From: a virus
Taxonomy: Duplodnaviria; Heunggongvirae; Uroviricota; Caudoviricetes
Length of the DNA: 64,000 nt
Strand: one strand, 5' to 3'
Virus record (IMG/VR): IMGVR_UViG_3300029549_000273
Shown here in pieces: positions 9,105 to 58,443 of the stretch. The position numbers were made by a program, and so were the translations under genes. How positions within the stretch are numbered: the stretch's first letter is position 1; every line of letters begins with the position of its first letter. The notes beneath the pieces were generated by a model, which searched no databases, was not told where the DNA came from, and saw nothing but the letters and a program-made list of their open reading frames with translations.

Positions 9105-9305
9105 TTAGTTCTCGTCAGCCAACTCGTCTGCCCAAAGCGAGAGCCAGCTGTAGATTTCGTCGCCGATGTTCTTATCGAACTCAGGATGCTCGTCGAAACT
9201 CAGCGGAGCGTCGATTTGAGAACACTCCCCCGATTCGGGTTCGTAAATGTCGATTTCAACATGGTCGTTATCCATGCGGATAGTCAGCTCAAGATTCTTT
9301 TCCAT
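9105..9305 (-). CDS. Hypothetical small acidic protein (66 aa)
   Basis: A ribosome-binding site AGGAGAAATGAGTT precedes the ATG. The protein is acidic with a DELADEN tail. Confidence 0.5.
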   Translation of the reverse strand: MEKNLELTIRMDNDHVEIDIYEPESGECSQIDAPLSFDEHPEFDKNIGDEIYSWLSLWADELADEN

Positions 9306-9320
9306 AACTCATTTCTCCTT

Positions 9321-9917
9321 TCAAAAATTAGAAAGCCCAGCGTTCGCAATCATTTCCTGTATGGGCGTCTGGCTCTTTCCCTTCATAAATCGGCCAAACG
9401 CCGGGTGGTTCTGGTATGCTTTTTCCAGCTTCGCTCTGGTCCGATGTGCTGCACGAGCTTCGCATTTGGATACGAAGTACATCATTCCGGGCAAGACCTG
9501 CCCGAAAGTGGTGTAACTGCTTTTGGGCTTGTCCTGCATGGACTTGAGGAAGTCCACAACAGCTTCTCTCTTGTCCAATTTATCAAGCGCCATTTTTCGG
9601 TAGTCGATAACAGTCGGGTCCAATACGGTGTCCCCATTGAGGATGACGACACAATGATGGGCAGGAATCGTATCTCCCACGAATAGCCATCCAGCATAAG
9701 TGTCAGCTTGATAGCCGGCGTTCCGCAATGCTTCACGCAAAATGAAAGCGTTGTGGTAACAGCCTCCAACAGTGAATTGCATCCCATCAAAAACAGAGCG
9801 GATACCGTCATCTTTGCACGGCACAGTATTGTCGTGGCTCAGGACGATGCCTGTTTTTCCGTTGAGCGGCCACATAGCAGATGGGATGATGATATCTTTC
9901 CCTCCCATGTCCGGCAA
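9321..9917 (-). CDS. Hypothetical protein (198 aa)
   Basis: ORF in the minus-strand array. The conserved Cys/His residues GGCYHNA...HHCVV suggest a possible hydrolase, but this is unverified. Confidence 0.45.
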   Translation of the reverse strand: MPDMGGKDIIIPSAMWPLNGKTGIVLSHDNTVPCKDDGIRSVFDGMQFTVGGCYHNAFILREALRNAGYQADTYAGWLFVGDTIPAHHCVVILNGDTVLDPTVIDYRKMALDKLDKREAVVDFLKSMQDKPKSSYTTFGQVLPGMMYFVSKCEARAAHRTRAKLEKAYQNHPAFGRFMKGKSQTPIQEMIANAGLSNF

Positions 9918-10094
9918 ATCGGAGACGATGACTTTTTCTTTATTGTTGGATAGTTGAATATCTATAGTGCATTCTCCTCCTTTTTAACTTCTTCTTCCAA
10001 TTAAGCGGTGGGATTGGCTGAGCTGACAAGGAGTCAGGCTCAGCCAATCCACAGTTTAGTTGTAGGAATCTACGCCTTTTTGCATTGCTCCATG

Positions 10095-10997
10095 TCAGCC
10101 CTGCCCCGGAAACGGGCCGCGAGGCATTTCCTGTTTTGAGGGTGTTTCCGCATCAGGCTTAGGTGCATCCGCTGTGGCAGGCTGAGCCTGCTCAGGCGCT
10201 TTGACCGGCCGCGCAAATGCCTTAACGGTATCCCAGAATACATCCATCTGGTCCGTACACTCACGCTCTTCCAGGTAGGTCGCAGCAAGGTCCGCCATGT
10301 GAAGCATAGCAGCGAGCGGGTAGCGATTATAGACCTCACTGGTCTCGCGCTCATTCGCAAAGTCTCCCATGTGGTAGCGGATAGCCATGCGCTCCTCCGT
10401 GGTAAGTCCCAGTACGCCGAGGAATTTCTCGATGATGGCAACGGAGGCCTCTCCGTGGCCGAACTTGTGCGTATCGGTCACGGTGTAGCTCATAACCGTC
10501 TCCCAGATGAAATCTCCGAGGCTGTCGTGCTTTACGTCCTTTTGAAGGGCGTTTTTCACCTTCTCCGCGTCATACGTCTTCCGGTTCTTCGGTTCCATCG
10601 AATAGAACCCGACCTTGCAGATGTCATGGAGAAGCGCGACGATGGCAGCGGAGTCCATCATTGCCTTGCTTTCCTCGTTCTTGAGCTGCGCGTCGGCGTC
10701 CTTCATGGAGTTGGCGTTGCCTACGATGATAGTCAGCCATACATAGACATTCCAGGAATGCTCCATCAAACCGCCAGGATAGTTCCCGTGGTACTTCGTA
10801 GATGCGGGCGCGTTGACATAGTTCATCACGCCGTTTCCACAGCCCGACTGCATCCAGTTCAGGAGTCGCTTGATGCCTGGACGACCAGTCTCAATAAGGG
10901 CTGAAGAAATGTTCTTCCAAAGAGTTGCCTTCTCTTCCGTGGTCAGGCTGTCCTTGTGTGGAACATTGGCCGCAGTCAGTTTCACATTGCTCAACAT
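10095..10997 (-). CDS. HD-domain phosphohydrolase family protein
   Basis: The signature H...HD...H...D is present: KYHGN, LLHDICK, HKFGHGE and MLHMADLA. Confidence 0.6.
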   Translation of the reverse strand: MLSNVKLTAANVPHKDSLTTEEKATLWKNISSALIETGRPGIKRLLNWMQSGCGNGVMNYVNAPASTKYHGNYPGGLMEHSWNVYVWLTIIVGNANSMKDADAQLKNEESKAMMDSAAIVALLHDICKVGFYSMEPKNRKTYDAEKVKNALQKDVKHDSLGDFIWETVMSYTVTDTHKFGHGEASVAIIEKFLGVLGLTTEERMAIRYHMGDFANERETSEVYNRYPLAAMLHMADLAATYLEERECTDQMDVFWDTVKAFARPVKAPEQAQPATADAPKPDAETPSKQEMPRGPFPGQG

Positions 10998-11012
10998 TGC
11001 ATATCCTCTCTT

Positions 11013-11396
11013 TCAAAGTTCAAAATTGTCAAGGCTGCTTTTGCGCTCCGCAACATTCTGCACCTTTTGGAGCAGTTCCTGCTTGATAGCAGGCCACGAA
11101 TGAATCAGCTCAAGGCCAGCATCCGAACGAGTGCAGAAGTCAGAGCAGCCGAATTCCTGCGTGCCGGTTGGCAGCAGGTTCATGCACAGATTCCCTGCAC
11201 CTCCGCAAACACTGCGTCCGTCTACATAGAGTCGATACTGCTTCCCGGTGGTGCCGTTGGCAAAGTGTACCACATTGCCAAAATAGACAGTAATCGCTTC
11301 ACCACAGAGCTTCGGGCTGATTTCGGCTTCGATGTATGCCTTGATTCTCTCAATGTTGGATTTCAGCTTCGCCTTTTCTTCTGTTGTCAGTTTCAT
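11013..11396 (-). CDS. Hypothetical protein (127 aa)
   Basis: ORF with a ribosome-binding site. No motif was recognised. Confidence 0.45.
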   Translation of the reverse strand: MKLTTEEKAKLKSNIERIKAYIEAEISPKLCGEAITVYFGNVVHFANGTTGKQYRLYVDGRSVCGGAGNLCMNLLPTGTQEFGCSDFCTRSDAGLELIHSWPAIKQELLQKVQNVAERKSSLDNFEL

Positions 11397-11489
11397 TTTT
11401 TCATTTCTCCTTTACAATATTTGTGGAATCGTTCATATTTGATGTTTGATATAAGCAGTGCCAATATAGATGAGTTGAAATAACTGGAA

Positions 11490-11912
11490 TTATTCCAGAT
11501 ACGGCTTGAGAAGCTGCTGACAGTTACGGATTGTCAGGCTCGACAAGATTGCGGAAGACAGCTCGTAGGGGTCATCTTCGACAGTCTCGCTGTCCCATTG
11601 CTCGTTGCCTTTGAGACGCCGACGCATCATCATCTTCACATAGCCCGCTTCATCCTCACTCGGCTCGATTTTCAGGCCATCGACTTCGCCGTTGCGTACT
11701 GCATCAACCAAATCTACGCCCATAATGTGCTCGGCAACCAAATTCTGCCAAAATTCCGCTTCTTCCCATGCGGGATGTTCTACCGTGCGGACTTTCATTG
11801 CGGATGCGGATATCTCGACCTGTGTAGCATTATCCGGCAGGCCCAGCGTATCGCAAACCTCAGACCAAGCATCGCTATTCCGGAAATCCTGTTTTGCAAG
11901 TATCAGTTTCAT
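11490..11912 (-). CDS. Hypothetical protein (140 aa); paralog of 37595..37966
   Basis: Shares the motif W.EVC..LGLP..T.QVE.S.SA.KVRT with the ORF at 37595..37966. It is preceded by leader repeat copy A. Confidence 0.5.
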   Translation of the reverse strand: MKLILAKQDFRNSDAWSEVCDTLGLPDNATQVEISASAMKVRTVEHPAWEEAEFWQNLVAEHIMGVDLVDAVRNGEVDGLKIEPSEDEAGYVKMMMRRRLKGNEQWDSETVEDDPYELSSAILSSLTIRNCQQLLKPYLE

Positions 11913-11924
11913 TTTTATTTCTCC

Positions 11925-12095
11925 TTTATAAAATAGTCTTGTTTATATAAAAGTCAGCGGTATATAGCCGCTGACAGAACTTTCTTTTTGTTTGTGATAC
12001 TTCCTTGGTATGTTCTTAGCATAGCGACAAATATGAGAAATGGCCCATTTTTGCACAAGGAACCCAAGAACCCAAGAATTCTTGCGAATTGGAAT
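11925..12095. repeat. Conserved intergenic leader module, copy A (hairpin, palindrome and iterons)
   Basis: Contains tatataaaagtcagcggtatatagccgctgaca...gatacttccttggtatgttcttagcatagc...ggaacccaagaacccaagaa. Homologous to the copies at 22.5, 28.7, 32.7, 35.9 and 38.0 kb. Confidence 0.6.
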
Positions 12096-12122
12096 GGTTT
12101 TCTGGGAATCCTCAAAATTGGA

Positions 12123-12151
12123 TTGACTTTTTAATGCAAATTTGGTATAAT
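12123..12151 (+). promoter_or_regulatory. Plus-strand sigma-70 promoter TTGACT-N17-TGgTATAAT for the only plus-strand gene
   Basis: The sequence is gaTTGACTttttaatgcaaatttggTATAATat. Confidence 0.5.
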
Positions 12152-12279
12152 ATACTTGCAACGATGGATAACACGTTTGCATCATTTTTTTCATTTCTCC
12201 CCTTCAATAATATGGTGGATGGACAGTTCTTTGTGAAACTGTGTCCATTCACCATATTTCTTTTTTGTGGAGGTTTTTA

Positions 12280-12596
12280 TGAACAAGAAGTCTTTTTCCG
12301 GCCACGATATATCGGAGGCTGCCAATCTGCCAGTTGCTCCCCTCACACCTGATGACAACGAGTTCTACGCCCTGTGCGGGTTCATCGACGATATCTTTTT
12401 ACTGCCTGAGCGCCGAGAACGCATCGTGAAACTCGCACAGGACAACCACCTACCCATCTTCATGGTTGTGAATATGGTTGAACCTTACTTTGCGCTCAAC
12501 CATATTACAGAGTATGACCACTCGCCTGATTCGTTTGAGACGGTGTTCAAGTATCTAAAGACACTCGCTGACGAGGAGGGGGAACTGTTCGAATAA
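12280..12596 (+). CDS. Hypothetical protein (105 aa), the only plus-strand gene in the window
   Basis: GGAGG lies 6 nt before the ATG (MNKKSF...). A hairpin CAGGG...CCCTG follows the stop codon. Confidence 0.5.
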
Positions 12597-12683
12597 TCTT
12601 TTTTCATCAACACGCAAAAAAACAGGGCAGCTATGCTACCCTGTTGATGTGTCTTGTTGTGTGATTCTTTCTGCTGTGGCAAC

Positions 12684-13309: not shown

Positions 13310-13963
13310 TCAGAACGGCAGCTCACCGTCATCATCAGAGATGTCGATAAAGCCGTCGTCGTTCATAGCGGGCGCTGCGGAAGCGTATGCGGCAGGACTA
13401 CCGCCGGACGCCTGCGCGTTGCCGCCGTTCTCCAGCATGACATTTGCGTTCTCCTTTTCCACCTTATCGGCTCCCACATGGTCCTTGGCAAACAGGGACA
13501 CGCGGCCAAAAGCGGCACGCTTCTTCCCTTCCTTATCCGTATAGACGGACAGTTCGCCGGAGAGAACGATGTTCTGCTTGAAGGTCAAATTGGGGTCGCC
13601 CATGACCTGATACAGGCCCATCGTGCTGCGGTCCATGAACACGCCGGCATACAGCTTGCCATTGATAAGTTCGACGCCGGTGGTTTCCAGGAACTCCTTG
13701 AAGGTCAGGTACTTCCCATCGTAATAGACAGAAGAGAAAGGATTGCCGTTGTTGCTCTTGCGGTCATCCGGGGAGATAACAACAGTACAGGCAATCTGCT
13801 TGTACTGCTTGTTGTTCTTGGATGTGCGCTCGATGACCTTGAACGGCTTTGCCCCACTCTTGGGGAAGTGGATGCCGCACTGGAACGTGCCGGTGATGCT
13901 GACGCTCTTTTCGCCCTTATAGGTGGAGACGACGTTCAGGTTGTTGGTGTACTCAGACATGAT
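13310..13963 (-). CDS. Putative single-stranded-DNA-binding-like protein with a C-terminal acidic DDDGELPF tail
   Basis: The internal start MSEYTNNL is preceded by AAAGGAGAAAAAA. The C-terminus DISDDDGELPF resembles the SSB acidic tip. The N-terminal domain is not a textbook SSB OB-fold. Confidence 0.4.
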   Translation of the reverse strand: MMSEYTNNLNVVSTYKGEKSVSITGTFQCGIHFPKSGAKPFKVIERTSKNNKQYKQIACTVVISPDDRKSNNGNPFSSVYYDGKYLTFKEFLETTGVELINGKLYAGVFMDRSTMGLYQVMGDPNLTFKQNIVLSGELSVYTDKEGKKRAAFGRVSLFAKDHVGADKVEKENANVMLENGGNAQASGGSPAAYASAAPAMNDDGFIDISDDDGELPF

Positions 13964-14185
13964 TTTTTCTCCTTTTCGAAATAATTTTTGTGATTGTAGC
14001 TTGCACATTAAAAAAATGGGACAAGCGATTCTTCCCTGCGGACAGTTCCGAATGCGCTTGTCCCAGCGAAGTATCAAGTCAATTTCATGAGAGATACTTC
14101 TTTAATGTAACGCCATCATACCCTACGATTTTCAATTTTCAAAACCTGTCTGTCCGGAACCTGAGAACTCAAGAACCCCAGCGGT

Positions 14186-16606
14186 TCACTGGCCGAACAT
14201 GGTGCAGAAGCGATAGAGCATGACAATGGTTTCAGCTCTCGTCATGTGGTACTGCGGACCAAGCGTTTGGTTCGACTGCCCCACGACAATGCCATTGGTC
14301 GCTGCCCAGCTCAGCGGGCGAACGGCGTAAGAAGAAACCGCGTAGAAATCAGCGTAAGCGTTCAGCACGCCAGTCTCCTGATAGTAAGCGAAGCCACGGC
14401 AGGTAGCGTAGCGGTACAGGATAGCGGCTGCCTGCTCACGAGTAACGGCGGCATACGGCTTAAAGGAGTTATCACCGTAGCCGGTGACAATGCCGTTCTC
14501 CGCAGCCCAGTAGATTGCATGAGCAAAGGGAGAGGAAGCAGCGACATCGGTGAAGTAGGTGTGACGTCCGGGATTCGGGCTTCCGCAGATACGGTACAGG
14601 AGCAGAACCAGCTCACCGCGAGAAACAGGCGTATTCGGGGAGAATACGTCGTTGGACACACCGTTGACGATGCCGCGAGAAGTCATGTAGCACAGCTCAT
14701 TGTAGTACCATGCAGAGTTGCTCACGTCATAGTACGGATTCTTCCAGCCCGGAGTCCAGTCATGGTTCGGTCCACCGGGATACCTGTTGCCGGCATTGTC
14801 CCAGTACCCGTTGATTCTGGTGAACTCCACGTCGAGGCGGTGGTCATCTCTGACGTTGGTGAAGGTGTACTGATTGTTGCGGGTGGAAACCAGAGAACCG
14901 TCCACATAAACGGCAGAAATCCGATAGCCTGCATCGGGTTCAAAGTAGAACGTGCGGCTATTTCCTCTGGCAACGGTGATACTGCCGCTGTCATTTGGCG
15001 TTACCGTACCGCCATAGCTGGAGCGAATGGTGATGTCAAATCTGGAGTTAGAGGAATTACGCTTTGCGAACTCAACGTAAATCTCGTGGTCCTCGCTGAC
15101 ATCGCGGAAGGTGTAGCTGCTCTTGGTCCCAACATACTCGTTATCGACATAGACGCCGATAATCTCATAGCCACTGTTCGCATAGAAGTTGAAAGTCTTA
15201 TCCGCACCATCCCGCACGGTATTCGTGCCAGACGGAGAAATGCGGCCGCCATCGGAAGCGGAAGCGTCGATGGTATACCGGTCATTCGTCGGTTTGGAGT
15301 GATTGGAAAGAATTTCGAAATGCTCCGTGGCATACGAGCCTCGGTAACTATTGATGCCGGTAACAAAGACAGTTGCCATGCCGACCTGTCTGTTGTTGGA
15401 GAAGCTCAGAGTGTAGTCCTCGCCTTCCGTCAGACGGTTGTTATAGCGGTCATAGACCTTTACCGTCGGCTCCTGATAGGTGCCGTCATAGTAGACATCA
15501 TTGACAACTACGCGGAAGTTCGTGCTAATGACGTCATCATCGACCTTGACATCATAGTAGGTCATTGTTCCTTCACGAACCGTAATAGCATAATTTGGGT
15601 TCACAGGGAATTCCGCACGGATGCCAAAGTACGGGCCATAAGAGTAGCCCGTCTTGGAATAGACGGAATAACGAGGCGAACCGAGGCTGTCGCCGGGGGC
15701 GAGACTGCCGCTGGTGATGTCATAGCGGAAGGTCGGGTCTGTATCTCGGATGCTGCAACGCACGTCGCGGATGCGCACCGTGATGGGAGCGGCCTGGATG
15801 GTGAACTCACGCATCTCGCTGACCTTGCTGTAGCTGCCGATTCCGTTGATGGTGACGCTGGCCTTGCCAGCATTGACGTTGTTGCGGTAAACGAGATTGT
15901 AGTCCCGTCCCTCTGTCAGCGTCTTTCCGGTGGAAGCGTCCTGAACGGTGGGCTTCGGCGTCTGAGCACTGCCGTTGTAGAAGACGTTGGACGGTCCGCT
16001 GATAACGACGGTGCCGAGCGTCTGGACAATCGTCAGAGTACCGGGCAGAACCGTGATTTCGTAATCGGCGTTGTCCTGGAAGGTCGCGCTGACCGTCTTG
16101 GTGCTGTTCCCGTTATCCTTCACGGAATACTGCGGCTGTCCAAGCGAATCTCCGGAAGCAAGTGTCCCCTGAAGAATCGTGTAGGTGTAGGAGGCCGGGT
16201 CCTTGACATCCTGCACATCGTCCACCTTCACGACTAACTGAGCGGGGTGAATGGTGAACTCACAGCTGCCAACATACCCTGCATACTTTCCCATTCCGAG
16301 AATGTACGCAATTCCCGTGCCGGCGTGAACATTGTTGCTGTATTCCATCCGGAAGTCAGTACCAGCAACCAGCTCCGTACCGCCCACTGTGATTTTTGGT
16401 GTCGGCGTCTGTGCTTTTCCGTTGTAGATGATGCCGCTGCTGTCGATTTCGCCGATACTGAGGCCGGACACGGCCTGCATTACGGCATAGCCCCCTTCTG
16501 TCCTCTCCGCCCCAGCAGTGTCGAGAGCTTGTGCCGGTGCTGTGACCAGCGTAAGCGTCAGAACTGCCGAGAGTGCGGCGGAACACACACGGTTTTTCCT
16601 ATTCAT
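14186..16606 (-). CDS. Cell-surface protein with a signal peptide, repeated MBG/Ig-like domains and three C-terminal S-layer-homology (SLH) domains
   Basis: The N-terminus MNRKNRVCSAALSAVLTLTLVTAPAQA is a signal peptide. The repeat YxIxxGxLAxGDSLGxPxYSV occurs several times. The C-terminal SLH motifs include FTDV...W....GIVTGYGDNSFKP...TREQAA. Confidence 0.8.
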   Translation of the reverse strand: MNRKNRVCSAALSAVLTLTLVTAPAQALDTAGAERTEGGYAVMQAVSGLSIGEIDSSGIIYNGKAQTPTPKITVGGTELVAGTDFRMEYSNNVHAGTGIAYILGMGKYAGYVGSCEFTIHPAQLVVKVDDVQDVKDPASYTYTILQGTLASGDSLGQPQYSVKDNGNSTKTVSATFQDNADYEITVLPGTLTIVQTLGTVVISGPSNVFYNGSAQTPKPTVQDASTGKTLTEGRDYNLVYRNNVNAGKASVTINGIGSYSKVSEMREFTIQAAPITVRIRDVRCSIRDTDPTFRYDITSGSLAPGDSLGSPRYSVYSKTGYSYGPYFGIRAEFPVNPNYAITVREGTMTYYDVKVDDDVISTNFRVVVNDVYYDGTYQEPTVKVYDRYNNRLTEGEDYTLSFSNNRQVGMATVFVTGINSYRGSYATEHFEILSNHSKPTNDRYTIDASASDGGRISPSGTNTVRDGADKTFNFYANSGYEIIGVYVDNEYVGTKSSYTFRDVSEDHEIYVEFAKRNSSNSRFDITIRSSYGGTVTPNDSGSITVARGNSRTFYFEPDAGYRISAVYVDGSLVSTRNNQYTFTNVRDDHRLDVEFTRINGYWDNAGNRYPGGPNHDWTPGWKNPYYDVSNSAWYYNELCYMTSRGIVNGVSNDVFSPNTPVSRGELVLLLYRICGSPNPGRHTYFTDVAASSPFAHAIYWAAENGIVTGYGDNSFKPYAAVTREQAAAILYRYATCRGFAYYQETGVLNAYADFYAVSSYAVRPLSWAATNGIVVGQSNQTLGPQYHMTRAETIVMLYRFCTMFGQ

Positions 16607-22496: not shown

Positions 22497-22514
22497 TTTT
22501 TCATTTCTCCTTTT

Positions 22515-28735: not shown

Positions 28736-28744
28736 TTTTTAATT

Positions 28745-44775: not shown

Positions 44776-44804
44776 TGAAGTTGAGTTTGCCGAGTATATT
44801 CCAA

Positions 44805-45105: not shown

Positions 45106-45112
45106 GGTAAAG

Positions 45113-45463: not shown

Positions 45464-46034
45464 TCTGATGGACAGACACCGCGTTGCGATTGGCCTGCCG
45501 AATGAGCGACAGGATATCGTCCAGCCTGTTTCCGCCAAAGTACACAAGTAATGGCTGATACAGCGCCAATACCGCCACAACAAAGCAGACGGCATCAGCA
45601 GTACCCGCAGGGAAATCCGCCCGTGCCATAACTACAGAATACAGGCTTGCCAGCAGTACAATCGCCGCTGTGAGGGAAAGAACGGTATGGAAGAATAAAG
45701 CGAGCGCCTTACTCACAGCACCGCAGTTGGCGAACTTCTTCTCCACGAAATACTTCGCAGCCGGCAAGCCCACCAGGACTGCCAGCAGCACAAGCTGGAT
45801 ACCAAGAGAGACTTTGGGAATCTGGAACTCCCGGCTCTGGAAGAACAGCGTCACGCGGCTGCCGACGTTCAGTGTTTCAATGAGTAGGAATAGCCACAGA
45901 ACCGCAAGCACCAGCGGTCTCGGCGCATTGAGCTTGCCCACGGCGAAATCGCACAACACCCATAGCACAATGAGTACCGCAAGCTGCGGCATCATGAGCC
46001 GCCCTAATTCCAGAGCAAAACTAACAAAAGTCAT
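45432..46034 (-). CDS. Hypothetical polytopic membrane protein (200 aa)
   Basis: Multiple hydrophobic segments. It is flanked by the two copies of the 300-bp RNA element. Confidence 0.5.
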   Translation of the reverse strand: MTFVSFALELGRLMMPQLAVLIVLWVLCDFAVGKLNAPRPLVLAVLWLFLLIETLNVGSRVTLFFQSREFQIPKVSLGIQLVLLAVLVGLPAAKYFVEKKFANCGAVSKALALFFHTVLSLTAAIVLLASLYSVVMARADFPAGTADAVCFVVAVLALYQPLLVYFGGNRLDDILSLIRQANRNAVSVHQNDTNHVSAGK

Positions 46035-46063
46035 TGTTCATTCCTCCTGAAAAATTTACCGAT

Positions 46064-46135
46064 TCCTGTCATTTGGTGGGGGACGTCAATCCTGCGGGCC
46101 AGATGATACTCCCTGTCATTTGCTGTGGCACATCA
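46064..46135 (-). repeat. Second mini-array of two repeats (one degenerate) of the CCTGTCATTTGGTGGGGGACGTCAA motif
   Basis: The motifs cctgtcatttggtgggggacgtcaat and cctgtcatttgctgtggcacatcaac are separated by 21 nt. Confidence 0.35.
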
Positions 46136-46159
46136 ACGATTAAAAAGACGAGAATTCCC

Positions 46160-46465
46160 CTACTTGAGAAAACCAAAGATTTGGTAAATCAGCACTTACC
46201 GCTCACGCGGCGTTACTGTGGTCCACATCGCCAAGGATATACCGGGTTTGATGGTACGCACACTTCTCCTTCCCCTCAGAGATGTTTAATACGCACCCGC
46301 AGAGCAGCGGACTTGTGGAGCATCCACCGGTGCCTATGGATTCCGGCATATCGTAGCCTTGCGGCTGAGGCTTATTGACGAGGCTTACTCCCCTTGCGGG
46401 TCATAAGCCACACCAAATGACAGGAGGCTGGGTCGGAGTTTCCGGCGCACCCGCCCGCCATTCGG
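46160..46465 (-). ncRNA. Second copy (copy B) of the roughly 300-nt structured RNA element, more than 95% identical to copy A
   Basis: Near-identical to 44805-45105 with a handful of substitutions. It is the same terminator-capped structured element. Confidence 0.4.
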
Positions 46466-46477
46466 CGGGAGTGCAGA

Positions 46478-48740: not shown

Positions 48741-48750
48741 TTATATTTAC

Positions 48751-48779
48751 ATTATACCACACATTAGCTTGATTGTCAA
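48751..48779 (-). promoter_or_regulatory. Consensus promoter TTGACA-N17-TGgTATAAT for the helicase gene
   Basis: The reverse complement reads aTTGACAatcaagctaatgtgtggTATAATgt. Confidence 0.5.
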
Positions 48780-48955
48780 TTCGTTTCAGAAAAGCTAAGC
48801 GCCCCAAGACAAGGAGCGCTTGGCTTGCTGGCTGACGTCTACTGCTTCTCAATATAGCCGCTGACAGGCTCTGCGTACATATTGTCGTCTGTGACAGGCT
48901 GGTAGCTTTGGGTTTTCAAACACAGTATATCACATAGAATTTTGTGTGCAAATAG

Positions 48956-52599: not shown

Positions 52600-53280
52600 C
52601 TATGGAAGTTCCCAGTGAATTGGTGTGCTTCCCATCTGTTCCAACAATCTGTTAGTTTGAGAAAAAGGTCTGCTGCCGATGAATGCTTTTACTACATCGT
52701 TTCCTTTTCGCGCCCCAAGGGGACTTGGATGACTTGAAAATACCACACCCTTATCAGGCAGTTGTGAAATTGGAATTCCGGCAAGAAAGGCTCTTGCCTG
52801 TCCGCCCCATGTGATGAACACAATCGGCTGCGGCAGCTTCGCACACGCCGCGAATACCGCCTGCGTGAAATTCTGCCACCCCCAGTTTCTATGGCTGTTT
52901 GCGGTCCCATCCTGTACTGTAAGTACGGTATTGAGCATGAGTACGCCTTGTTCCGCCCAGTGAGTCAGGTCTCCACTTTTCGGATACGGACAACCAATGT
53001 CACTGACCAGTTCCTTGAAGACGTTTTTGAGCGACGGTGGAAAAAGCACACCACGGTTTACTGAAAAGCACAGCCCGTTCGCCTGCCCCGCCTCGTGATA
53101 TGGGTCTTGCCCGACAAGGCATACCTTCACCTTCTCCGGCGTGGTAAGCTCCAACGCACGGAATATCTGCTCCTGCGGCGGGTATATTGTGCGACCCGCT
53201 TCGCGCTCACAGGCAGCCCGCTTGGCAAGCTCAGCTCCAAGCGCCTGTACATCCTGTGGGATTACATCGCTCCACATCAC
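52600..53280 (-). CDS. ung: Uracil-DNA glycosylase (family 1)
   Basis: Contains the motifs GQDPYH, LCFSV...LNTVLTV and HPSPL. Confidence 0.85.
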   Translation of the reverse strand: MMWSDVIPQDVQALGAELAKRAACEREAGRTIYPPQEQIFRALELTTPEKVKVCLVGQDPYHEAGQANGLCFSVNRGVLFPPSLKNVFKELVSDIGCPYPKSGDLTHWAEQGVLMLNTVLTVQDGTANSHRNWGWQNFTQAVFAACAKLPQPIVFITWGGQARAFLAGIPISQLPDKGVVFSSHPSPLGARKGNDVVKAFIGSRPFSQTNRLLEQMGSTPIHWELP

Positions 53281-53315: not shown

Positions 53316-53344
53316 ATTATACCACACATTAGCTCAAAAGTCAA
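53316..53344 (-). promoter_or_regulatory. Consensus promoter TTGACT-N17-TGgTATAAT for ung
   Basis: The reverse complement reads aTTGACTtttgagctaatgtgtggTATAATat. Confidence 0.5.
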
Positions 53345-54089: not shown

Positions 54090-55583
54090 TTATTCAGCCT
54101 TGCCGTCCGCGTCATTCTTGGCAGGCGGTTCCTGCGGCTGTGTGGGAGCTGCCGTATTGTCCGGCTTGTCCATGACGATGACAGGAGAGGTCTGCTGGGC
54201 CGTGAGCTTGCCGCCGATGGCTCCGGCAATAAGAGACTTAATATCCAACCCCATTCCGGAAGAAAGGCCCTCTGTGACCTGTGTGGTGCCGTTGATGATG
54301 TCACCCAGCAGCTTCGCACTGTTGCCTTCGCCGTACATCGTGATTTTATCCACCTTGCTGAGAGGTTCAGCGACATTCTTGGCGATTTCCGGCAAAGCGT
54401 TCATAATCATCTCAACGATGGCCGCGTCGCCGTATTTCTTCATAGCTTCTGCCTTCTTGTCGATACCTTCTGCTTCAGCAACGGCCTTGGCACGAATGAC
54501 ATTGGCTTCCGCCTCACCGACGGCAGCAATACCAGCAGCTTCCTGCTCGCGGGCGTACTTTACGGCGTCGGCTTCCGCTCTCTTTGCATCCGCCTCACGT
54601 TGGCGCTCGAAAAGCTGCGCCTCCGCGTCCTTCTGACGTCGGTAGAGGTCGGCATCCGCCTGTGCGCGGACCTCCGCATCCAGAGACTGCTTCTTAACTT
54701 CGACCTCTTTGTTTTTCAGCTCCGCTTCGCGTTCCGCCTTGGCGATTTGCGCATTGACGGTAGCCGTCTCAATGGAGCGCTGCTGTTCCTGCTGCTGGAT
54801 GGTATACGCGGCATCGGCCTCGGCCTTCTTCGTATCCTCCTGAACCTTGAGTTCAGCTTTGCGGATGGAGAGGTCATTCAGCTTCTGAGCGATTTGCATT
54901 TCGGACTCGACTTTGGCATCGTTAGACGCCTTGGCCGCCTGCGCCTGAGCGATAGCCACGTCACGCTCCGCCTCAGCTTTGGCGATGGCAGCATCCTTCT
55001 GGATTTTGCTCATATTGTCCTGACCGAGGGAGTTGATTAAGCTGTTTTCGTCCGTGACACGCTGGATATTGCAGGAGATGATTTCGATACCGAGCGCACT
55101 CATATCTGTCTGTGCTTTTGACTGTACCTCGTCACCGAATTTCTTTCGGTCATTGCAGATTTCCTTGAGAGAGATGGTGCCGATGATTTCGCGCATATTG
55201 CCCTGGAGAGAATCCGCGATGGCGCAGCTGAAATCCGCTTCTCGCATATTCAGAAAGTTCTTCATGGCGAGCTGGATGCCTTCCGGGTCCGTCTTGACTC
55301 TGACCTTGGCAACCGCGTCCACATCGACGCCGATGAAGTCGTTGGTCGGGATATAGCCTTCCGACTTGATGTCGATGGAGATTTGCCGGACAATGAGCTT
55401 ATCTACACGCTCCAGAAACGGAATTCGGATACCCGCTCGCCCAATCAGAACGCGGGGCCTTTTTCGTATACCGGAAATGATGTAGGCCACATCGGGCGGA
55501 GCCTTTACATAGCCAAGAAGAAAGATAATCACCACAAGGGCCACTACTGCAATTACAGGCAGCAGCTTCACGAGATTTTCCAT
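54090..55583 (-). CDS. Flotillin-like SPFH/band-7 domain protein
   Basis: An N-terminal transmembrane segment is followed by an SPFH domain and a long Ala/Glu/Lys-rich coiled-coil. The layout resembles FloT/YuaG. Confidence 0.75.
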   Translation of the reverse strand: MENLVKLLPVIAVVALVVIIFLLGYVKAPPDVAYIISGIRKRPRVLIGRAGIRIPFLERVDKLIVRQISIDIKSEGYIPTNDFIGVDVDAVAKVRVKTDPEGIQLAMKNFLNMREADFSCAIADSLQGNMREIIGTISLKEICNDRKKFGDEVQSKAQTDMSALGIEIISCNIQRVTDENSLINSLGQDNMSKIQKDAAIAKAEAERDVAIAQAQAAKASNDAKVESEMQIAQKLNDLSIRKAELKVQEDTKKAEADAAYTIQQQEQQRSIETATVNAQIAKAEREAELKNKEVEVKKQSLDAEVRAQADADLYRRQKDAEAQLFERQREADAKRAEADAVKYAREQEAAGIAAVGEAEANVIRAKAVAEAEGIDKKAEAMKKYGDAAIVEMIMNALPEIAKNVAEPLSKVDKITMYGEGNSAKLLGDIINGTTQVTEGLSSGMGLDIKSLIAGAIGGKLTAQQTSPVIVMDKPDNTAAPTQPQEPPAKNDADGKAE

Positions 55584-55606: not shown

Positions 55607-55635
55607 TTGTAAATATATTATACCGCATAACACCT
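55607..55635 (-). promoter_or_regulatory. Consensus promoter TTGACT-N17-cGgTATAAT for the flotillin gene
   Basis: The reverse complement reads aTTGACTcgtgaggtgttatgcggTATAATat. Confidence 0.45.
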
Positions 55636-55738
55636 CACGAGTCAATTTAGCGTAGAGGCAGACAGGTGAGACGCTGAACACGTCCCACCTGTCTGCCCAA
55701 ACCATATAACTTCAATCATGTGCGGCCTTTTGCACGTC

Positions 55739-56143
55739 TCACTCAATAGAGTCTTCCGGCTCTAAGGCTGCTCCGCAATGCACACAACGGTTCGACATGG
55801 TAGCGCAGTATCCACAGAGGACATCAGCCGGAGTATCAGCGCAGGTGATATGCCTGCCGCAGACCTGACAAAAGCCGTCTGAGAAAGCGTGGAGAACGAT
55901 GCGGTTTTTACACTTGCGGCATTCCTGCGGACCGGCAAAGCGCTGGACCCGTCCGACTTGCCCATCCTCCAGCATGACCTTAATACCGCGTGGATGTGTT
56001 GGACTGTTGGTGAGAATCCGCTTCACGACGCCGCGTGTGAGTTTACCTGTCGGCTGGTCTGCTTTGAGTACGATATCTACTGGCATACCTGGGTGAATGG
56101 ACGCCCGTTTGGTACAGGTTGGTTCAGGGATTTTATTTGTCAT
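55739..56143 (-). CDS. Hypothetical protein (134 aa) with an N-terminal YwbE-like domain and C-terminal CxxC pairs
   Basis: The N-terminal GMPVDIVLKADQPTGKLTRGVVKRILT is followed by several CxxC pairs. Confidence 0.4.
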   Translation of the reverse strand: MTNKIPEPTCTKRASIHPGMPVDIVLKADQPTGKLTRGVVKRILTNSPTHPRGIKVMLEDGQVGRVQRFAGPQECRKCKNRIVLHAFSDGFCQVCGRHITCADTPADVLCGYCATMSNRCVHCGAALEPEDSIE

Positions 56144-57872
56144 TTTGAGGGACCCCTCTCACTTTGGCCTTTTCGATTTTTCCAATCACTTCTGTTACCT
56201 TCTGTGCAGTCAGAGGGCTGGTGGTAGATTTATCCAGTGCGTCCAGCAGTTCCGGCAGCTCGCCGAGTTTTACGACCGGGATTTCGCTGTTGTCCGCATC
56301 CTGCAATTTTACATTCGGGTTGGCAAGGCAGATGATGCCGCATACCGGAACATCCTCACCAACAATTTTCGACAGTAAGGCAGCGTGACGCTTAACTTGG
56401 AAAGCGGGGCTTTCCGTTGTGGTGAAATGCCCTGCATTTCGCATATCCCGGTCCCAATAGTTCGTGTCATCGACGCGGATGGTTCCAACGTAGTTTTTGG
56501 TCTCAATATGAATGACGCCGGCAGGTCCTACGAGAAGGTGGTCGATTTCCTGCGGCTCTTTCATATAGTCCCACGCGGCAATACGGATACATCCTCCGCT
56601 GTACTTGCTCACGCAGTCTGCCGCGATGCTGCGGTATGCGCTGTGCTCTGCAAGCCACCACTTGAGTTTGTAATTCACTTCCTTCTCACCGGCTTCGCCC
56701 AGTTCTCGTGCTTTGCGCTCCCTCTCCTCCTGCTCCTGCTCCACACGAGCGGCTTCCGCCGCCGCGCTGGCGATTTGATTGCGGTAGTTCGAGCACACGC
56801 TTTCCGCGAGACCAGTCACGCCTTCCAGTATCAGATTAAGCTGACTATTGAGTTGAAAATGCTTGGCTTCTATTTCGCTGCACAAGTGCAAGATGTTTTT
56901 CGATTTTTCGAGAAGCACACACTCACCGAGCGTAAGGTCGGAGTAAGCGTCGCAGAAGGCATCTGGGATATTGAGCCTGCACTTCTCCATTATCCAGCTT
57001 TTTACTTCCGCTCTCTTCTGTGCTCTGACACAGCAATACTCCGGATGCGTCCGCTCCAACGTGTCGATGTACTGTCGCGCATGGGCGATGATGCCGCTTC
57101 GCTCCGCAGCAATCGCTGCTTCCTCGGCCTGCTTCGCCTCCGCTTCCCGGCATCTGGCCTCTTCCTGCCTGCGTTGCCGCTCCTCACGGATATGCTGCGC
57201 GGTCTTCCCGCTTACGCCAGGTTTGAACTCGTACATCTTGCCGGTCGCAAACAGGGCTTTCAGCAGGACGGAGACATAATAGGCGCTGTACGGAATCAGC
57301 AGGACAATGCCAAGGTAGCAGAACACATAGGATACGACGCCGAGAGCCTTCCACAACGAGACGACCAGGACGAAGGCCGCAACGTAGGCGGCCAGATAGA
57401 TAAGGCATTTTGTCCTCTGATTTTTGTCGCGAGTCATGGTCAAGAATTTGCTCTGCTCCACATAATCCGCATACTGTTCATCCGATACGACTTTCTGCCA
57501 CTCGTCCGCCATGCTGCGGTTTGCAAAGAAGAAGGTTCGGAGCATTAACAACAAACCGATAACCGCCAGCAAAATGAAGGCCACAATGCAGACACAAAGG
57601 AGTGCGAGCACAGCGCTAATCACCTTGAGGATACCGTGACCGAGCAGTTCGGCGAGCCATCCGCACAGCAGGGTCGCCAGAATTCCGCCCATGCCGATGC
57701 AGAAGGTCTTAGTGAGCAGTGCGGCTTCCTTTTTCAGTGTTGCCTTGACTGTACTGTAGTATGTTTCCGCAGACCTTATCCCCTCGTCGTTCTCCACAAT
57801 TTCCCGTGCGGCATCCATGTACTTATGAAGCCGGTCAACAAACCAATCTTTGATGGAATCCAACATAAGCAA
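56133..57872 (-). CDS. Membrane protein with a C-terminal NERD (nuclease-related) domain
   Basis: Several transmembrane segments at the N-terminus. The NERD-like segment is HLLVGPAGVIHIETKNYVG. Confidence 0.55.
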   Translation of the reverse strand: MLMLDSIKDWFVDRLHKYMDAAREIVENDEGIRSAETYYSTVKATLKKEAALLTKTFCIGMGGILATLLCGWLAELLGHGILKVISAVLALLCVCIVAFILLAVIGLLLMLRTFFFANRSMADEWQKVVSDEQYADYVEQSKFLTMTRDKNQRTKCLIYLAAYVAAFVLVVSLWKALGVVSYVFCYLGIVLLIPYSAYYVSVLLKALFATGKMYEFKPGVSGKTAQHIREERQRRQEEARCREAEAKQAEEAAIAAERSGIIAHARQYIDTLERTHPEYCCVRAQKRAEVKSWIMEKCRLNIPDAFCDAYSDLTLGECVLLEKSKNILHLCSEIEAKHFQLNSQLNLILEGVTGLAESVCSNYRNQIASAAAEAARVEQEQEERERKARELGEAGEKEVNYKLKWWLAEHSAYRSIAADCVSKYSGGCIRIAAWDYMKEPQEIDHLLVGPAGVIHIETKNYVGTIRVDDTNYWDRDMRNAGHFTTTESPAFQVKRHAALLSKIVGEDVPVCGIICLANPNVKLQDADNSEIPVVKLGELPELLDALDKSTTSPLTAQKVTEVIGKIEKAKVRGVPQNDK

Positions 57873-57957
57873 TCACCCCCAAAAGCTATGTCTTCATTCT
57901 ACCGTATATCTCGGTTTCTGACAAGCTGACTTTTTGGCTTCGCAGCTTCGCATTCGC

Positions 57958-58443
57958 TCAGCAGAATTCGGGAACGAGGACACGGACATCTTCCAGATTT
58001 TTATTGAACATTTTTGCGACCATTTCACCTTGGCCGCTGAACAGCACCTTGGAAATTGCGTACTTTGCGTATTTGCCACCCCATGCGTGGGAGAACGGAT
58101 AGGTATAGCAGATTTCAGATTTTCCTTCGTCTTCCTCAAAACCGTCCCACACCACATTCGTTTCCAGCATAACAACGGGCAGGTTCGTTTCGACTTCTTT
58201 GATGACCTCCGGGATACTACCCCACAGAACAATCCACTTATAGAGCATATTGGAGTTCATAGGGCTGTCATCGTTCTCATAGATGTGTGCATCCATTACT
58301 TCCCCATGTCCACTGTTCGGGCTTGCCTTCAGGTAGCGGAGTGATTTCAGTCTTACGCTCGTACACACTCCGTTCTCGCCGGTCACATCGAACTCGGCTT
58401 CCCTGACATCGCTTTTGATTCGTACTAAATATTTCTGTTCCAT
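57958..58443 (-). CDS. Hypothetical protein (161 aa)
   Basis: ORF with a ribosome-binding site. Confidence 0.45.
   Translation of the reverse strand: MEQKYLVRIKSDVREAEFDVTGENGVCTSVRLKSLRYLKASPNSGHGEVMDAHIYENDDSPMNSNMLYKWIVLWGSIPEVIKEVETNLPVVMLETNVVWDGFEEDEGKSEICYTYPFSHAWGGKYAKYAISKVLFSGQGEMVAKMFNKNLEDVRVLVPEFC

Follow-up and report, generated by a model that had tools for sequence, protein, structure and literature searches.

A one-directional gene array in a gut virus record is part of a very large, probably conjugative element of an Oscillospiraceae bacterium, able to integrate into the chromosome

Of the elements described so far, the "Hodor" conjugative megaplasmids (Yuan et al., bioRxiv 2026, PMC12934698) come closest to the one examined here. 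These are very large, Bacillota associated, present in thousands of human-gut metagenomes, and classed as viral by standard tools. They encode VirB4 and VirD4 but no canonical relaxase. They also code for a short HD protein that resembles MOBH, with the helicase encoded separately, and for ParA, a sortase, and surface proteins with MBG and S-layer domains, and they carry TnpB insertions and Phage_lysozyme2 domains. Compared by description only, the element examined here shares all of these features. However, it differs in GC content (51.8% versus 44.6 to 47.1%), in size (152 kb or more, probably near 200 kb, versus a mean of 357 kb), and in having a large serine recombinase with attB, attP, attL, and attR sites, while Hodors are described as nonintegrating. 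The Hodor Rep_3, ParB/ParM, SecYEG/trigger-factor module, giant protein of more than 7,300 aa, and I-C CRISPR-Cas system were not seen in the 121 kb examined here.

The window is the whole 64,000-nt stretch that was analyzed. Within it, an initial annotation had marked positions 9105 to 58443 as a one-directional array of about 65 ORFs, largely small orphan genes, with frequent stop/start overlaps. The single direction was borne out, as 52 of the 53 ORFs of at least 60 aa lie on the minus strand (binomial chance of about 6e-15), while the ORF count came out lower (53, or 61 at a minimum of 44 aa). At 7 of the 52 gene junctions the genes overlap, and at 19 the gap is no more than 30 nt. "Largely small orphan genes" was about half right. 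Only 21 of the 53 ORFs matched a Pfam, PHROG, or NCBIfam family, with the other 32 having no match in any of the three, but 11 ORFs are 400 aa or longer (median, 200 aa; 27 ORFs of 200 aa or less). The pI is below 5 for 22 of the 53, and several proteins are Cys rich (5 to 8% Cys).

Gene orientation and gene style are unchanged on both sides of this interval, so 9105 and 58443 are arbitrary coordinates and not natural borders. The whole window (1 to 64000) is a single co-oriented stretch of a 52%-GC mobile element, with 63 of 64 genes on the minus strand by a codon-usage gene call and 90% of its length tiled by minus-strand ORFs. Flanking DNA in public contigs keeps this orientation, which covers at least 121 kb of the element, type IV secretion system (T4SS) genes included. 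Co-orientation is a property of the whole element and not of one region. The sole opposite-strand gene (12279 to 12596, plus strand) encodes a 105-aa orphan with its own consensus promoter at 12123 to 12151; it is called in public contigs too and sits in the window's lowest-GC stretch (45%). The lower-GC neighboring segment noted initially was also found, at 58 to 64 kb (47 to 49% GC versus 51.8% for the window). It carries a VirB4-type ATPase (61607 to 64000, minus strand; P-loop_TraG and AAA_10 domains) whose 5' end is lost at the window edge; its full length is 830 aa.

The array is a slice of a very large conjugative element of a human-gut Oscillospiraceae bacterium that is able to integrate into the chromosome. 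Directly upstream of the array, on the same strand, is a Gram-positive-type T4SS with genes for two pilin-like proteins, a CHAP/lysozyme hydrolase, a VirD4 coupling protein, and PrgI/VirB3-VirB4. An 881-aa protein of this locus, without a family match, may be VirB6-like. It is these T4SS genes, as read from sequence, that lead us to call the element conjugative. On its other side, the 9- to 58-kb stretch is followed by a 500-aa large serine recombinase (integrase; 2540 to 4042, minus strand) with Resolvase, Recombinase, and Zn_ribbon_recom domains, whose stop codon is about 125 bp from attP. The attP site is an imperfect palindrome at 2400 to 2426 (sense strand GGTGTCAATTACA-AC-TGACAATGATAC) with its crossover core, AC, at 2412 to 2413. 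All four large-serine-recombinase sites were recovered with the AC core: attB, empty, in 25 contigs, attP in 3, attL in 3, and the predicted attR, whose flank is identical to the attB flank at 400 of 400 positions. One attL contig (L023) leaves the element at attP and runs on into 62%-GC chromosome. The attB site is within a chromosomal ORF adjoining spoIIIAA. The circular junction and both integrated junctions were present in independent assemblies. For a sister element, which adjoins cotJ genes, LSR-RNase H and LSR-chromosome junctions were both seen. That the circular junction is common in assemblies and most attB sites are empty suggests plasmid-like maintenance. Rather than core-genome synteny without att sites or conjugation genes, we found att sites and a T4SS, in keeping with the mobile-element reading of the initial annotation.

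Element size and circularity were inferred from assembled contigs and junctions. A contig of 152,351 bp is 100% identical to window positions 1 to 11658, with attP internal, and the sister element has contigs of 191,586 and 191,475 bp from different samples. The element is near-identical across thousands of human-gut metagenomes, with its exact YqaJ protein (g27) listed in 9131 collection blocks and another exact protein in 5853, and it is also present in an Oscillospiraceae isolate. Only 1 of 185,579 GTDB species representatives, Oscillospiraceae bacterium CM18GR_63, has the YqaJ protein. The host is a spore-forming Oscillospiraceae bacterium of the human gut with 62% GC; GC is 0.518 for the element versus 0.62 for the host chromosome.

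Most of the functions named in the initial annotation held up. RecD2, UvrD, UDG, YqaJ, DUF1064, NERD, and sigma-70 were recovered, while the HD protein was weak in Pfam (strong in PHROGs) and the ASCH match was marginal (20.1 bits versus a cutoff of 21.2). All genes given with coordinates in this and the next paragraph are on the minus strand. The first genes beyond attP encode RNase H (909 to 1658) and a RecJ-like DHH exonuclease (2 to 928, 5' part only), both from domain matches; in a public contig, the full RecJ is 539 aa and is followed by RecG, R2K, an MBL-fold protein, ParA, and DpnD/PcfM. A tRNA cluster (Gly, Met, Glu, Asn, Leu, Tyr, Thr, and Gln) spans 6406 to 8464, with a ninth tRNA at 7217 to 7289 by Rfam. 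The HD-domain phosphohydrolase or nuclease g18 (10095 to 10997; HD and TraI_2 weak; phrog_28876, 5e-27) has an AF2 model with a pLDDT of 85.5 and the YhaM HD exonuclease as best PDB match. As the sole relaxase candidate, g18 has weak local similarity to MobH: its match to the MobH model NF041494 (E = 3e-5) has 23 bits versus a cutoff of 200, and homologs with 39 to 43% identity are in prophages with portal genes and without a T4SS.

The SSB-like claim was supported for g24 (13310 to 13960), a divergent 216-aa protein. It has no Pfam match, but its core is OB-fold-like, it has a disordered linker, and its C-terminal tip, DDGELPF, is invariant. The top 27 or so PDB matches of its predicted OB fold (pLDDT 65) are SSB or PriB (E ≥ 0.013). 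The family is confined to this element and its sister. Upstream are a secreted surface protein, g25 (14186 to 16606), with MBG, InlB-B-repeat, and three SLH domains; a RecD2-type SF1 helicase, g26 (16763 to 18988; PADLOC typeIV_RecD model, 2e-73); and the YqaJ-type exonuclease g27 (19070 to 20437; domain match). The 398-aa orphan g30 (21300 to 22496), which matched neither a family nor a PDB entry, shows the strongest conservation of any gene between the element and its sister (67% aa identity); the YqaJ exonuclease, RecD2 helicase, SLH surface protein, divergent SSB, and HD nuclease are conserved as well. The array's remaining genes are orphans, UvrD and UDG repair genes, two sigma-related genes, membrane protein genes, and IscB insertion sequences. 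An RpoD-like sigma factor, g53 (38236 to 39300), has a perfect sigma-A-type promoter at 39380 to 39408, and g57 (40817 to 42079) has sigma region-4-like and RNAP alpha-CTD-like domains, with its C-terminal part matching a PHROG of unknown function. The IscB insertion (43188 to 46435) comprises an RRXRR/HNH protein (43188 to 44624) and a HEARO (omega) RNA (44853 to 45016); a second, solo HEARO copy is at 46216 to 46435 (287-nt repeat D3, 98% identical). Consensus promoters accompany the UvrD/Rep helicase g67 (46852 to 48852; promoter, 48751 to 48779) and the uracil-DNA glycosylase g71 (52600 to 53280; promoter, 53316 to 53344). Domain matches identified SPFH/flotillin (54090 to 55583), YwbE/DUF2196 (55739 to 56143), and a NERD membrane protein (56133 to 57872).

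The element also has at least 12 copies of a leader cassette, 7 of them in the window and all 7 on the minus strand. The cassette is about 170 nt long and consists of three direct repeats of GTTCT, the invariant palindrome GGTATG-N7-CATACC, and a hairpin (four covarying pairs) with a U-run. Its 3' end is about 30 nt before the ribosome-binding site, and a strong terminator precedes each cassette. Copy 1 (11919 to 12085) is upstream of the g20-g19-g18 operon, and others are upstream of g30 (22506 to 22681), g39 (28744 to 28915), the radical-SAM gene g44 (32737 to 32913), g49 (35927 to 36103), and g52, a paralog of g20 (37968 to 38139). A partial copy upstream of the SSB-like gene (14091 to 14190) has the direct repeats and a conserved block without the terminator hairpin. 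The initial annotation had suggested that these leaders could be single-strand promoters. This found no support: no −35/−10 (sigma-A) consensus was present inside the cassettes, they did not fold as single-stranded DNA into a long Frpo-like hairpin (z = −0.46), and copies are scattered around the element across at least 110 kb, to either side of both the T4SS and the att site. Their sequence suggests cassettes that combine a promoter with a 5'-UTR terminator. The cassette of the sister element has a sigma-A promoter, the same hairpin and U-run, and a ribosome-binding site.

Seven perfect consensus promoters were found, versus about 0.03 expected by our own arithmetic. We propose a phage-like transcription program with two promoter classes. 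In class 1, six perfect TTGACA-N17-TGnTATAAT promoters would be read by host sigma-A and would drive the RpoD-like sigma factor, UvrD, UDG, flotillin, the tRNAs, and the RNase H/RecJ/RecG operon. In class 2, the leader cassettes would drive other operons. These cassettes most likely hold a non-sigma-A promoter read via the element's own sigma factor or an activator, and the promoter would be followed by a 5'-UTR attenuator requiring read-through. Alternatively, the hairpin and U-run could be a transcript stabilizer, a small-RNA 3' end, or a protein-binding site.

On balance, we favor the array as backbone of a very large ICE or integrating conjugative megaplasmid. The block's functions would be the handling of single-stranded DNA, recombination, repair, and establishment, called on when the element replicates or reaches a new cell. 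The uniform gene direction would reflect how the whole genome is organized, as it does in phages and in many Firmicutes plasmids. The initial annotation had likened the array to a leading region or anti-defense island; the conjugative mobile element in that reading stands on the T4SS and att sites, while no known anti-defense family was found. As a leading region, the array would be the first DNA into the recipient, transcribed from the transferred strand and rich in anti-defense and establishment genes, which we consider unlikely. In a self-consistent version, nic would sit in the low-GC, partly noncoding stretch from 11.9 to 12.7 kb, upstream of the g20-g19-g18 operon with its MobH-like HD gene. 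Entry of the plus strand would start near 12.5 kb and proceed 5' to 3' toward higher coordinates, with the SSB-like gene first and RecD2, YqaJ, and the orphan genes after it. Consistent with this, the plus strand would be the template for all genes, the SSB-like gene is at 13.3 to 14.0 kb, many of the proteins are short and acidic, g18 weakly resembles MobH, and other parts of the element encode an Apyc1-like MBL protein and DpnD/PcfM. In the Hodor preprint, a short MOBH-like HD gene has a putative oriT located upstream of it (PMC12934698). However, orientation is uninformative because the whole element is co-oriented, and a uniform gene direction does not identify a leading region. None of the window proteins matched a known anti-defense Pfam family, such as the ArdA, KlcA/ArdB, Ocr, PsiB, or Acr Pfam families, and PADLOC on the window gave generic helicase matches only. 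The MobH similarity of g18 and the leaders count against this reading for the reasons given above, and the sister HD gene trails the SSB-like gene by 82 nt holding only a terminator. A further argument against it is the analogy with F or pIP501, by which genes downstream of the transfer operon, in its direction of transcription, would enter last if oriT is upstream of the operon. The search for a relaxase or oriT, in the window and beyond it, found neither, nor a replication initiator, in about 121 kb of the element, so the label "leading" cannot be assigned. Nothing tested marks the array specifically as a leading region or anti-defense island; with 32 of 53 genes lacking a known function, anti-defense or other roles are possible for many.

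A phage reading strikes us as quite improbable. In it, the window would hold the early or replication genes of a jumbo phage or phage-plasmid, and the VirB4-like genes would have a role other than conjugation. IMG/VR lists the fragments as viral, the YqaJ, ERF, DUF1064/resolvase-like, and HD proteins are PHROG matches, and the tRNA cluster, own sigma factor, NrdD-like and HU proteins, and strict co-orientation would suit a phage. Yet about 121 kb of the element yielded no gene for a terminase, portal, capsid, or tail. The T4SS set is complete, including a coupling protein, pilin-like proteins, and a cell-wall hydrolase, and the nearest VirB4 relatives are on large plasmids of cultured Oscillospirales. 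The Hodor study also reports that such elements are routinely misclassified as viruses (PMC12934698). The rest of the element, beyond about 121 kb, could carry phage structural genes. An ordinary host chromosome, with a co-oriented leading-strand gene block, would account for the monotonic cumulative GC skew over the window, but the 25 contigs with an empty attB already refute it. The GC 10 points under that of the flanking chromosome, the near absence of the YqaJ protein from species representatives, and the T4SS and integrase genes point the same way, and we give this reading practically no weight.

Beyond the Hodors, the preferred reading as an integrating conjugative element can be set against four known systems. 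Conjugative-plasmid leading regions and anti-defense islands (Samuel et al., Nature 2024, PMC11541004) likewise have co-oriented genes, an SSB-like gene, and many small uncharacterized acidic proteins beside transfer genes, but here no oriT/relaxase anchor, known anti-defense gene, or Frpo/ssi-like element was found and co-orientation is not local. Firmicutes large-serine-recombinase ICEs (for example, Tn5397/TndX; the Tn1549 family of Faecalibacterium, PMC12084326) share an integrase adjoining att, a 2-bp core, insertion within a host gene, and a T4SS of VirB1-like hydrolase, VirD4, VirB3/PrgI, VirB4, and VirB6-like protein. The element here is about ten times larger, carries tRNAs, an RpoD-like sigma factor of its own, and recombination and repair genes of a phage-like kind, and has a common circular junction with most attB sites empty; no MOBP7 or MOBT relaxase or MobC was found. 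Among Oscillospirales plasmids, VirB4 is 38% identical to those of the large plasmids of Vescimonas fastidiosa (pMM35_02, NZ_AP023417.1) and Subdoligranulum variabile (OY725878.1). pMM35_02 has the same T4SS gene set, including an S1-domain protein beside VirD4, followed on the same strand by sigma-70, SSB, and ECF sigma genes, and it too has no recognized relaxase (MOB-suite, non-mobilizable). It differs in its metabolic cargo; in the 42-kb plasmid stretch examined, no serine recombinase was seen and no window protein except VirB4 found a match. Finally, like the sporulation gene-intervening elements skin, SPbeta, and gin (PMC5595907, PMC5025042), this is a serine-recombinase element in an ORF adjoining the spoIIIA operon, but its target ORF has no known sporulation role, and the element is conjugative by its T4SS genes and far larger.

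Genes were called with a codon-usage model over the whole 64-kb window; a greedy longest-ORF call was dropped because it picked antisense shadow ORFs. By this model, 63 of the 64 genes lie on the minus strand, as do the tRNAs called by ARAGORN (8/8), and minus-strand ORFs tile 90% of the window. The initial annotation had described a one-directional array at 9105-58443, and the strand counts bear this out, with 52 of the 53 ORFs of at least 60 aa in this interval on the minus strand. The sole opposite-strand gene is a 105-aa orphan (12279-12596, plus strand) with its own perfect promoter. The array is real, but its two ends are not natural borders, as the same architecture is found on both flanks. 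The ORFs of the interval have a median length of 200 aa, with 27 no longer than 200 aa and 11 of at least 400 aa, and 22 of the 53 have a pI below 5. Genes overlap at 7 of the 52 junctions, and the gap is 30 nt or less at 19 of 52.

A family match in Pfam, PHROG, or NCBIfam was found for only 21 of the 53 ORFs, leaving 32 orphans. Among the functions previously proposed, RecD2, UvrD, UDG, YqaJ, DUF1064, NERD, sigma-70, and VirB4 are firm by family matches. The HD hydrolase (g18, 10095-10997) has a strong PHROGs match but a weak Pfam match, and the match of the ASCH protein is marginal. Bacterial SSB has an OB-fold DNA-binding core, a linker that is disordered, and an acidic C-terminal tip with PF as its last residues. 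The SSB-like protein g24 (13310-13960) has no match to the Pfam SSB family, but it ends in an invariant DDGELPF tip preceded by a disordered linker. Its AF2 model has a pLDDT of 65, and the top PDB matches of this model are all SSB or PriB, with E values no better than 0.013.

We examined about 121 kb of the element in all. Beyond the 64-kb end of the window, upstream in the sense of transcription, the same strand encodes a VWA protein, ERF, a primase-like protein, two TrbC/T4SS-pilin-like proteins, proteins of 881 and 441 aa, a CHAP/lysozyme hydrolase, a VirD4-type coupling protein (756 aa), a signal peptidase, an S1-domain protein, a PrgI-like protein, and then an 830-aa VirB4. The type IV secretion system (T4SS) expected of an ICE, with VirB4 and coupling protein, is present. 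Downstream in the window, the tRNAs are followed by a 500-aa large serine recombinase. Past position 2412, the next genes encode RNase H, RecJ, RecG, an R2K protein, an MBL-fold protein (weakly Apyc1-like), ParA, and DpnD/PcfM, and farther on surface proteins, a sortase, HU, and, by eye, an NrdD-like reductase. No terminase, portal, or major capsid gene of a tailed phage and no canonical relaxase or Rep_3 gene was found in these 121 kb, and a walk along IMG/VR contigs reached no relaxase, no Rep gene, and no circle closure.

A megablast search with 24 kb against phage and plasmid collections gave no match. In an assembly collection, 9131 blocks list the exact YqaJ protein, and 5853 list another protein from the window; the contigs among the matches listed are gut-metagenome assemblies of up to 668 kb. 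One contig from JGI (152,351 bp) matches window positions 1-11658 at 100% identity, and 10 IMG/VR “viral” contigs carry the YqaJ protein. Its only carrier among 185,579 species representatives is Oscillospiraceae bacterium CM18GR_63. Two other very large “viral” contigs, IMGVR_UViG_3300021256_001754 (L028, 249,585 bp) and IMGVR_UViG_3300045988_183320 (L071, 147,408 bp), encode proteins more distantly related to the CHAP hydrolase (32% identity) and to the VWA protein (59% identity), a hint of a wider family of such elements.

The integration sites of the element could be reconstructed. The attP site is an imperfect palindrome at 2400-2426 with an AC core at 2412-2413, about 125 bp past the recombinase stop codon, and it is also found in at least two other assemblies. 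One contig (L023) matches window positions 1-2413 at 99.8% and then continues into chromosome of 62% GC carrying rpmB, hprK, murB, rapZ, whiA, and dnaE, whereas the element side has 52% GC. When metagenome contigs from JGI were scanned with the chromosomal flank, the uninterrupted attB (...CCGTGGTC-AC-GGCTGTCGACCC...) was found at 25 sites, and attL, at the RNase H end of the element, in 2 additional contigs. This ratio of 25 empty to 2 occupied sites suggests that the element is mostly extrachromosomal. The attR site predicted from the left half of attP and the right half of attB was found within an IMG/VR contig on which the array and the T4SS are present as well, and its flank is identical to that of attB (400/400). 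All four sites (attP, attB, attL, and attR) were thus recovered with a common AC core, and the recombinase has the LSR domains. The ORF that hosts attB encodes a Cys-rich protein of 284 aa and lies immediately upstream of spoIIIAA-spoIIIAB. The loci behind these observations, and behind the insertion of a sister element described below, are L023, L041, L042, L057, L066, and L037.

Through a 58%-identical HD protein, we found a sister element. It keeps the gene order (g30, an orphan gene, then YqaJ, RecD2, SLH protein, SSB-like, HD, ..., recombinase, RNase H, RecJ) at protein identities of 35 to 67% across the kept genes, with just 22% for the recombinase. The sister was seen in two ways, as a circular junction and joined to the chromosome beside cotJA/B/C. 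Different samples gave two sister contigs of nearly equal length (191,586 and 191,475 bp), which points to a closed size of about 191.5 kb.

Taken together, we consider it somewhat probable that the array is a DNA-handling and establishment backbone module of a giant integrating conjugative element, and that this module is transcribed from host-type promoters and by way of a multi-copy leader cassette. The initial annotation had instead compared the array to a leading region or an anti-defence island. A leading region lies directly beside oriT, opposite the relaxase, and enters the recipient first; its genes are templated by the transferred strand, with a local orientation bias, and it is enriched in known anti-defence genes (ArdA, KlcA/ArdB, Acr, PsiB, and orphan methyltransferases) (Samuel et al. 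2024, PMC11541004). Applied to this element, a self-consistent model of this kind would put nic near 12.1 to 12.7 kb and let the SSB-like gene enter first. Part of this proposal held, as the block does lie in a conjugative mobile element. However, neither the relaxase nor the oriT expected of an ICE was found in the approximately 121 kb examined, where the relaxase families PF03432, PF03389, PF02486, PF08751, and PF01076 had no match. The anchor that defines a leading region, oriT with a relaxase, is missing, and oriT cannot be located by sequence. In the sister, the space between the SSB-like and HD genes holds no oriT-like feature, only a terminator. Nor can orientation discriminate, since co-orientation spans the whole examined element, including the T4SS operon, and so cannot mark a leading region. 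For the anti-defence island, no ORF of at least 60 aa in the window matched a known anti-defence Pfam family at an E value of 0.01 or lower. PADLOC gave generic UvrD/GajB and RecD matches lacking partner genes and called no defence system. A place in a conjugative mobile element is therefore supported, leading-region or anti-defence status is not established, and we regard the leading-region model as unlikely.

The sole relaxase candidate was the HD protein g18. Against the MobH model (NF041494/TIGR03760), it scored 23.1 bits, compared with a cutoff of 200, over residues 64-129 only, and no full-length match above the cutoff was found. A confident structure model of g18 has the YhaM HD exonuclease as its best solved fold. 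Its homologs, at 39 to 43% identity, are found in ordinary prophages that have no T4SS, where they lie between RusA and the packaging genes, and this prophage setting weakens the case for g18 as a relaxase. At two loci (L067 and L068), homologs of the g18 family sit in temperate-phage replication modules, after RusA and before ParB_N and a portal gene. The g18 family resembles, by description only, the “short MOBH-like relaxase” of the Hodor megaplasmids (PMC12934698), and its presence in prophages is a reason for caution in naming such short HD proteins MOBH-like relaxases.

The repeated structured leaders previously taken as possible single-strand promoters do exist, as cassettes of about 170 nt. 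Seven copies lie in the window, all in gene sense, at 11919-12085, 14091-14190, 22506-22681, 28744-28915, 32737-32913, 35927-36103, and 37968-38139 (anchors at 12005, 14102, 22595, 28830, 32826, 36016, and 38057). Five more were found outside it (L024 17993-18158; L034 9140-9304, 12272-12429, and 17693-17864; L026 1146-1324), flanking the T4SS and attP on both sides, for a total of at least 12. Those in the window always stand just upstream of an operon, and most copies follow a strong terminator that belongs to the upstream gene. The parts of each cassette are, in order, three direct repeats of GTTCT, an AAT and a palindrome (GGTATG-N7-CATACC) that are both invariant, the conserved block AAGGAAGTATCACAAAC, and a hairpin with four covarying pairs followed by CTTTTATATAT (a U-run), with the ribosome-binding site (RBS) about 30 nt farther on.

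An Frpo/ssi single-strand promoter is a long hairpin that mimics the duplex −35/−10 elements (Samuel et al. 2024, PMC11541004), and the cassettes do not fit this description. The template strand of one leader, as single-stranded DNA, is not more structured than shuffled sequence (z = −0.46), the RNA has a z score of −1.1, and the structure consists only of the 5-bp invariant hairpin and an 11-bp terminator-like hairpin. The cassettes contain no sigma-A consensus (TTGACA/TATAAT pair), and no spacing fit a sigma-A, sigma-H, sigma-E/K, or ECF promoter when these were sought by eye. At the equivalent position, the sister has a perfect sigma-A promoter followed by the same hairpin and U-run and then the RBS, which places the hairpin in a 5′ untranslated region. 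The cassette had no Rfam match at the gathering score or at an E value of 0.5 or lower. A subthreshold mmgR/suhB match at 28925-29006 was dismissed as it overlaps an ordinary terminator, and a long-range RNAalifold pairing of the GTTCT repeats with the palindrome, seen with 6 copies, was dropped when it vanished with 11.

The element also has promoters of the host type. Seven perfect matches to TTGAC[AT]-N17-TA[TC]AAT, with an extended TGTGGTATAAT −10 element, were found where about 0.03 would be expected by chance. Six are on the minus strand (1647-1675, 9033-9061, 39380-39408, 48751-48779, 53316-53344, and 55617-55645) and one is on the plus strand (12123-12151). Behind them lie the genes for g53 (38236-39300), UvrD, UDG, flotillin, and RNase H, the tRNA region, and the plus-strand gene, and the seven share about 55 nt of mutual similarity (repeat family D4). 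The g53 protein is an RpoD-like sigma factor, though its score is below every curated cutoff.

The cassette looks like a promoter plus attenuator, and we infer that the element may have two promoter classes and a sigma- or antitermination-dependent regulon. More tentatively, and with more doubt than belief, we propose that the cassette and the RpoD-like sigma factor could act together as a temporal switch in the style of phages, one that spans the whole of a conjugative element. Transcription would begin at the host sigma-A promoters, so that the sigma factor, and perhaps an antiterminator, would be made. The element's sigma factor would then turn on a regulon whose operons are all controlled by the same promoter/attenuator cassette, and this regulon would take in the SSB-like, HD, and YqaJ/RecD2 genes and many orphan genes. 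In the literature compared here, without a targeted search, we met no description of a multi-copy leader regulon in an ICE or plasmid.

The stretch at 11913-12683 has the lowest GC of the window (45%). Besides the sole opposite-strand gene, it contains two divergently oriented promoters, an imperfect inverted repeat of 13 bp at 12213-12252, and, at about 12620-12650, a bidirectional terminator; it could serve as an origin or in regulatory switching. The proteins g20 (11490-11912) and g52 (37595-37966), each encoded by the first gene after a cassette, look like paralogs by eye, with a common N-terminal motif in their translations (...W.EVC..LGLP......VE.S.SA.KVRT). The protein g57 (40817-42079) is unusually built for a protein associated with transcription. 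It has a sigma region-4-like helix-turn-helix, a domain like the alpha-CTD of RNA polymerase, and a C-terminal part that matches a PHROG of unknown function and is Cys-rich at its end by eye.

IscB/OMEGA systems belong to the IS200/IS605 superfamily. One such insertion occupies 43188-46469, where an RRXRR/HNH gene (g61; RRXRR match, 1.9e-41) has HEARO (omega) RNA upstream; the two HEARO copies score 91.8 and 93.7 bits against RF02033, above the gathering score. The second is a solo copy 1.4 kb farther upstream, at higher coordinates, and the two 287-nt repeats that carry the HEARO copies, 98% identical to each other, lie on either side of an ORF for a membrane protein (45432-46034). In further copies of the element, IscB or TnpB (IS605) is inserted elsewhere (L008 17526-18818, L020 15467-16606, L021 17151-18209, and L022 15103-16395), and these differing places imply insertion sequences active within the population. 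The tRNA cluster within 6406-9003 has nine tRNAs, namely, the eight ARAGORN calls and an Rfam tRNA at 7217-7289. After it come three tandem repeats of about 135 nt (8658-9003) that resemble a T-arm and acceptor and are not called as tRNAs. Secreted SLH-anchored proteins are encoded at 14186-16606 and 23204-24958 and on another contig (L070 3527-4633). This set, which comprises an MBG/InlB-repeat protein, a beta-lactamase-fold protein, and a protein with an anthrax-lethal-factor-like domain, probably alters the host cell surface.

If the backbone-module reading is correct, a mobile element that ranks among the most widespread in the human gut, with mostly unknown genes and exact protein copies in thousands of metagenome assemblies, would be a giant conjugative element able to switch between a free circle and insertion beside sporulation genes. 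With its own sigma factor, nine tRNAs, and a multi-copy cassette, it would lend itself to the study of phage-like gene timing in conjugative elements, and the carrier isolate CM18GR_63 makes experiments feasible. The case would also show that public catalogues file such elements as viruses.

The closest described kind is the Hodor megaplasmids (PMC12934698), which we compared by description and not by sequence. Both have a human-gut setting, are misclassified as viral, have VirB4/VirD4 and no canonical relaxase, and encode sortases, MBG/S-layer proteins, and a short MOBH-like HD protein, with the helicase encoded separately. Hodors are assigned by nucleotide identity to G1 or G2, of at least 90% across at least 80% of the length. 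Their GC content is 44.6 to 47.1% and their size 211 to 389 kb, and they carry Rep_3, ParA/ParB/ParM, sortases, and a SecYEG module as well as a surface protein longer than 7300 aa (PMC12934698). Of these hallmarks, ParA, one sortase, and MBG/SLH proteins were seen in the element, and Rep_3, ParB/ParM, the SecYEG module, and the giant surface protein were not seen in the 121 kb examined. The element also differs from Hodors in its GC content, which is higher and outside their range (51.8% in the window; 0.50 to 0.52 in the flanks), in its probable size (at least 152 kb), and in having an integration system that works.

Among Oscillospirales plasmids, large Vescimonas and Subdoligranulum plasmids encode a VirB4 38% identical to that of the element, and in pMM35_02 the T4SS is laid out in the same way, with sigma-70, SSB, and ECF sigma genes after it. 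No relationship could be detected between the orphan g30 (21300-22496) and the DUF932 protein of pMM35_02 (E = 0.031), and the PDB holds no relative of g30. Tn1549-family ICEs of Faecalibacterium share the T4SS parts list but are far smaller and have MOBP7 relaxases (PMC12084326). Finally, the insertion of the element beside sporulation genes recalls skin, SPbeta, and gin, intervening elements with serine recombinases by which such genes are interrupted (PMC5595907, PMC5025042). This likeness, together with attB beside spoIIIAA and the sister beside cotJ, suggests that excision might be linked to sporulation.
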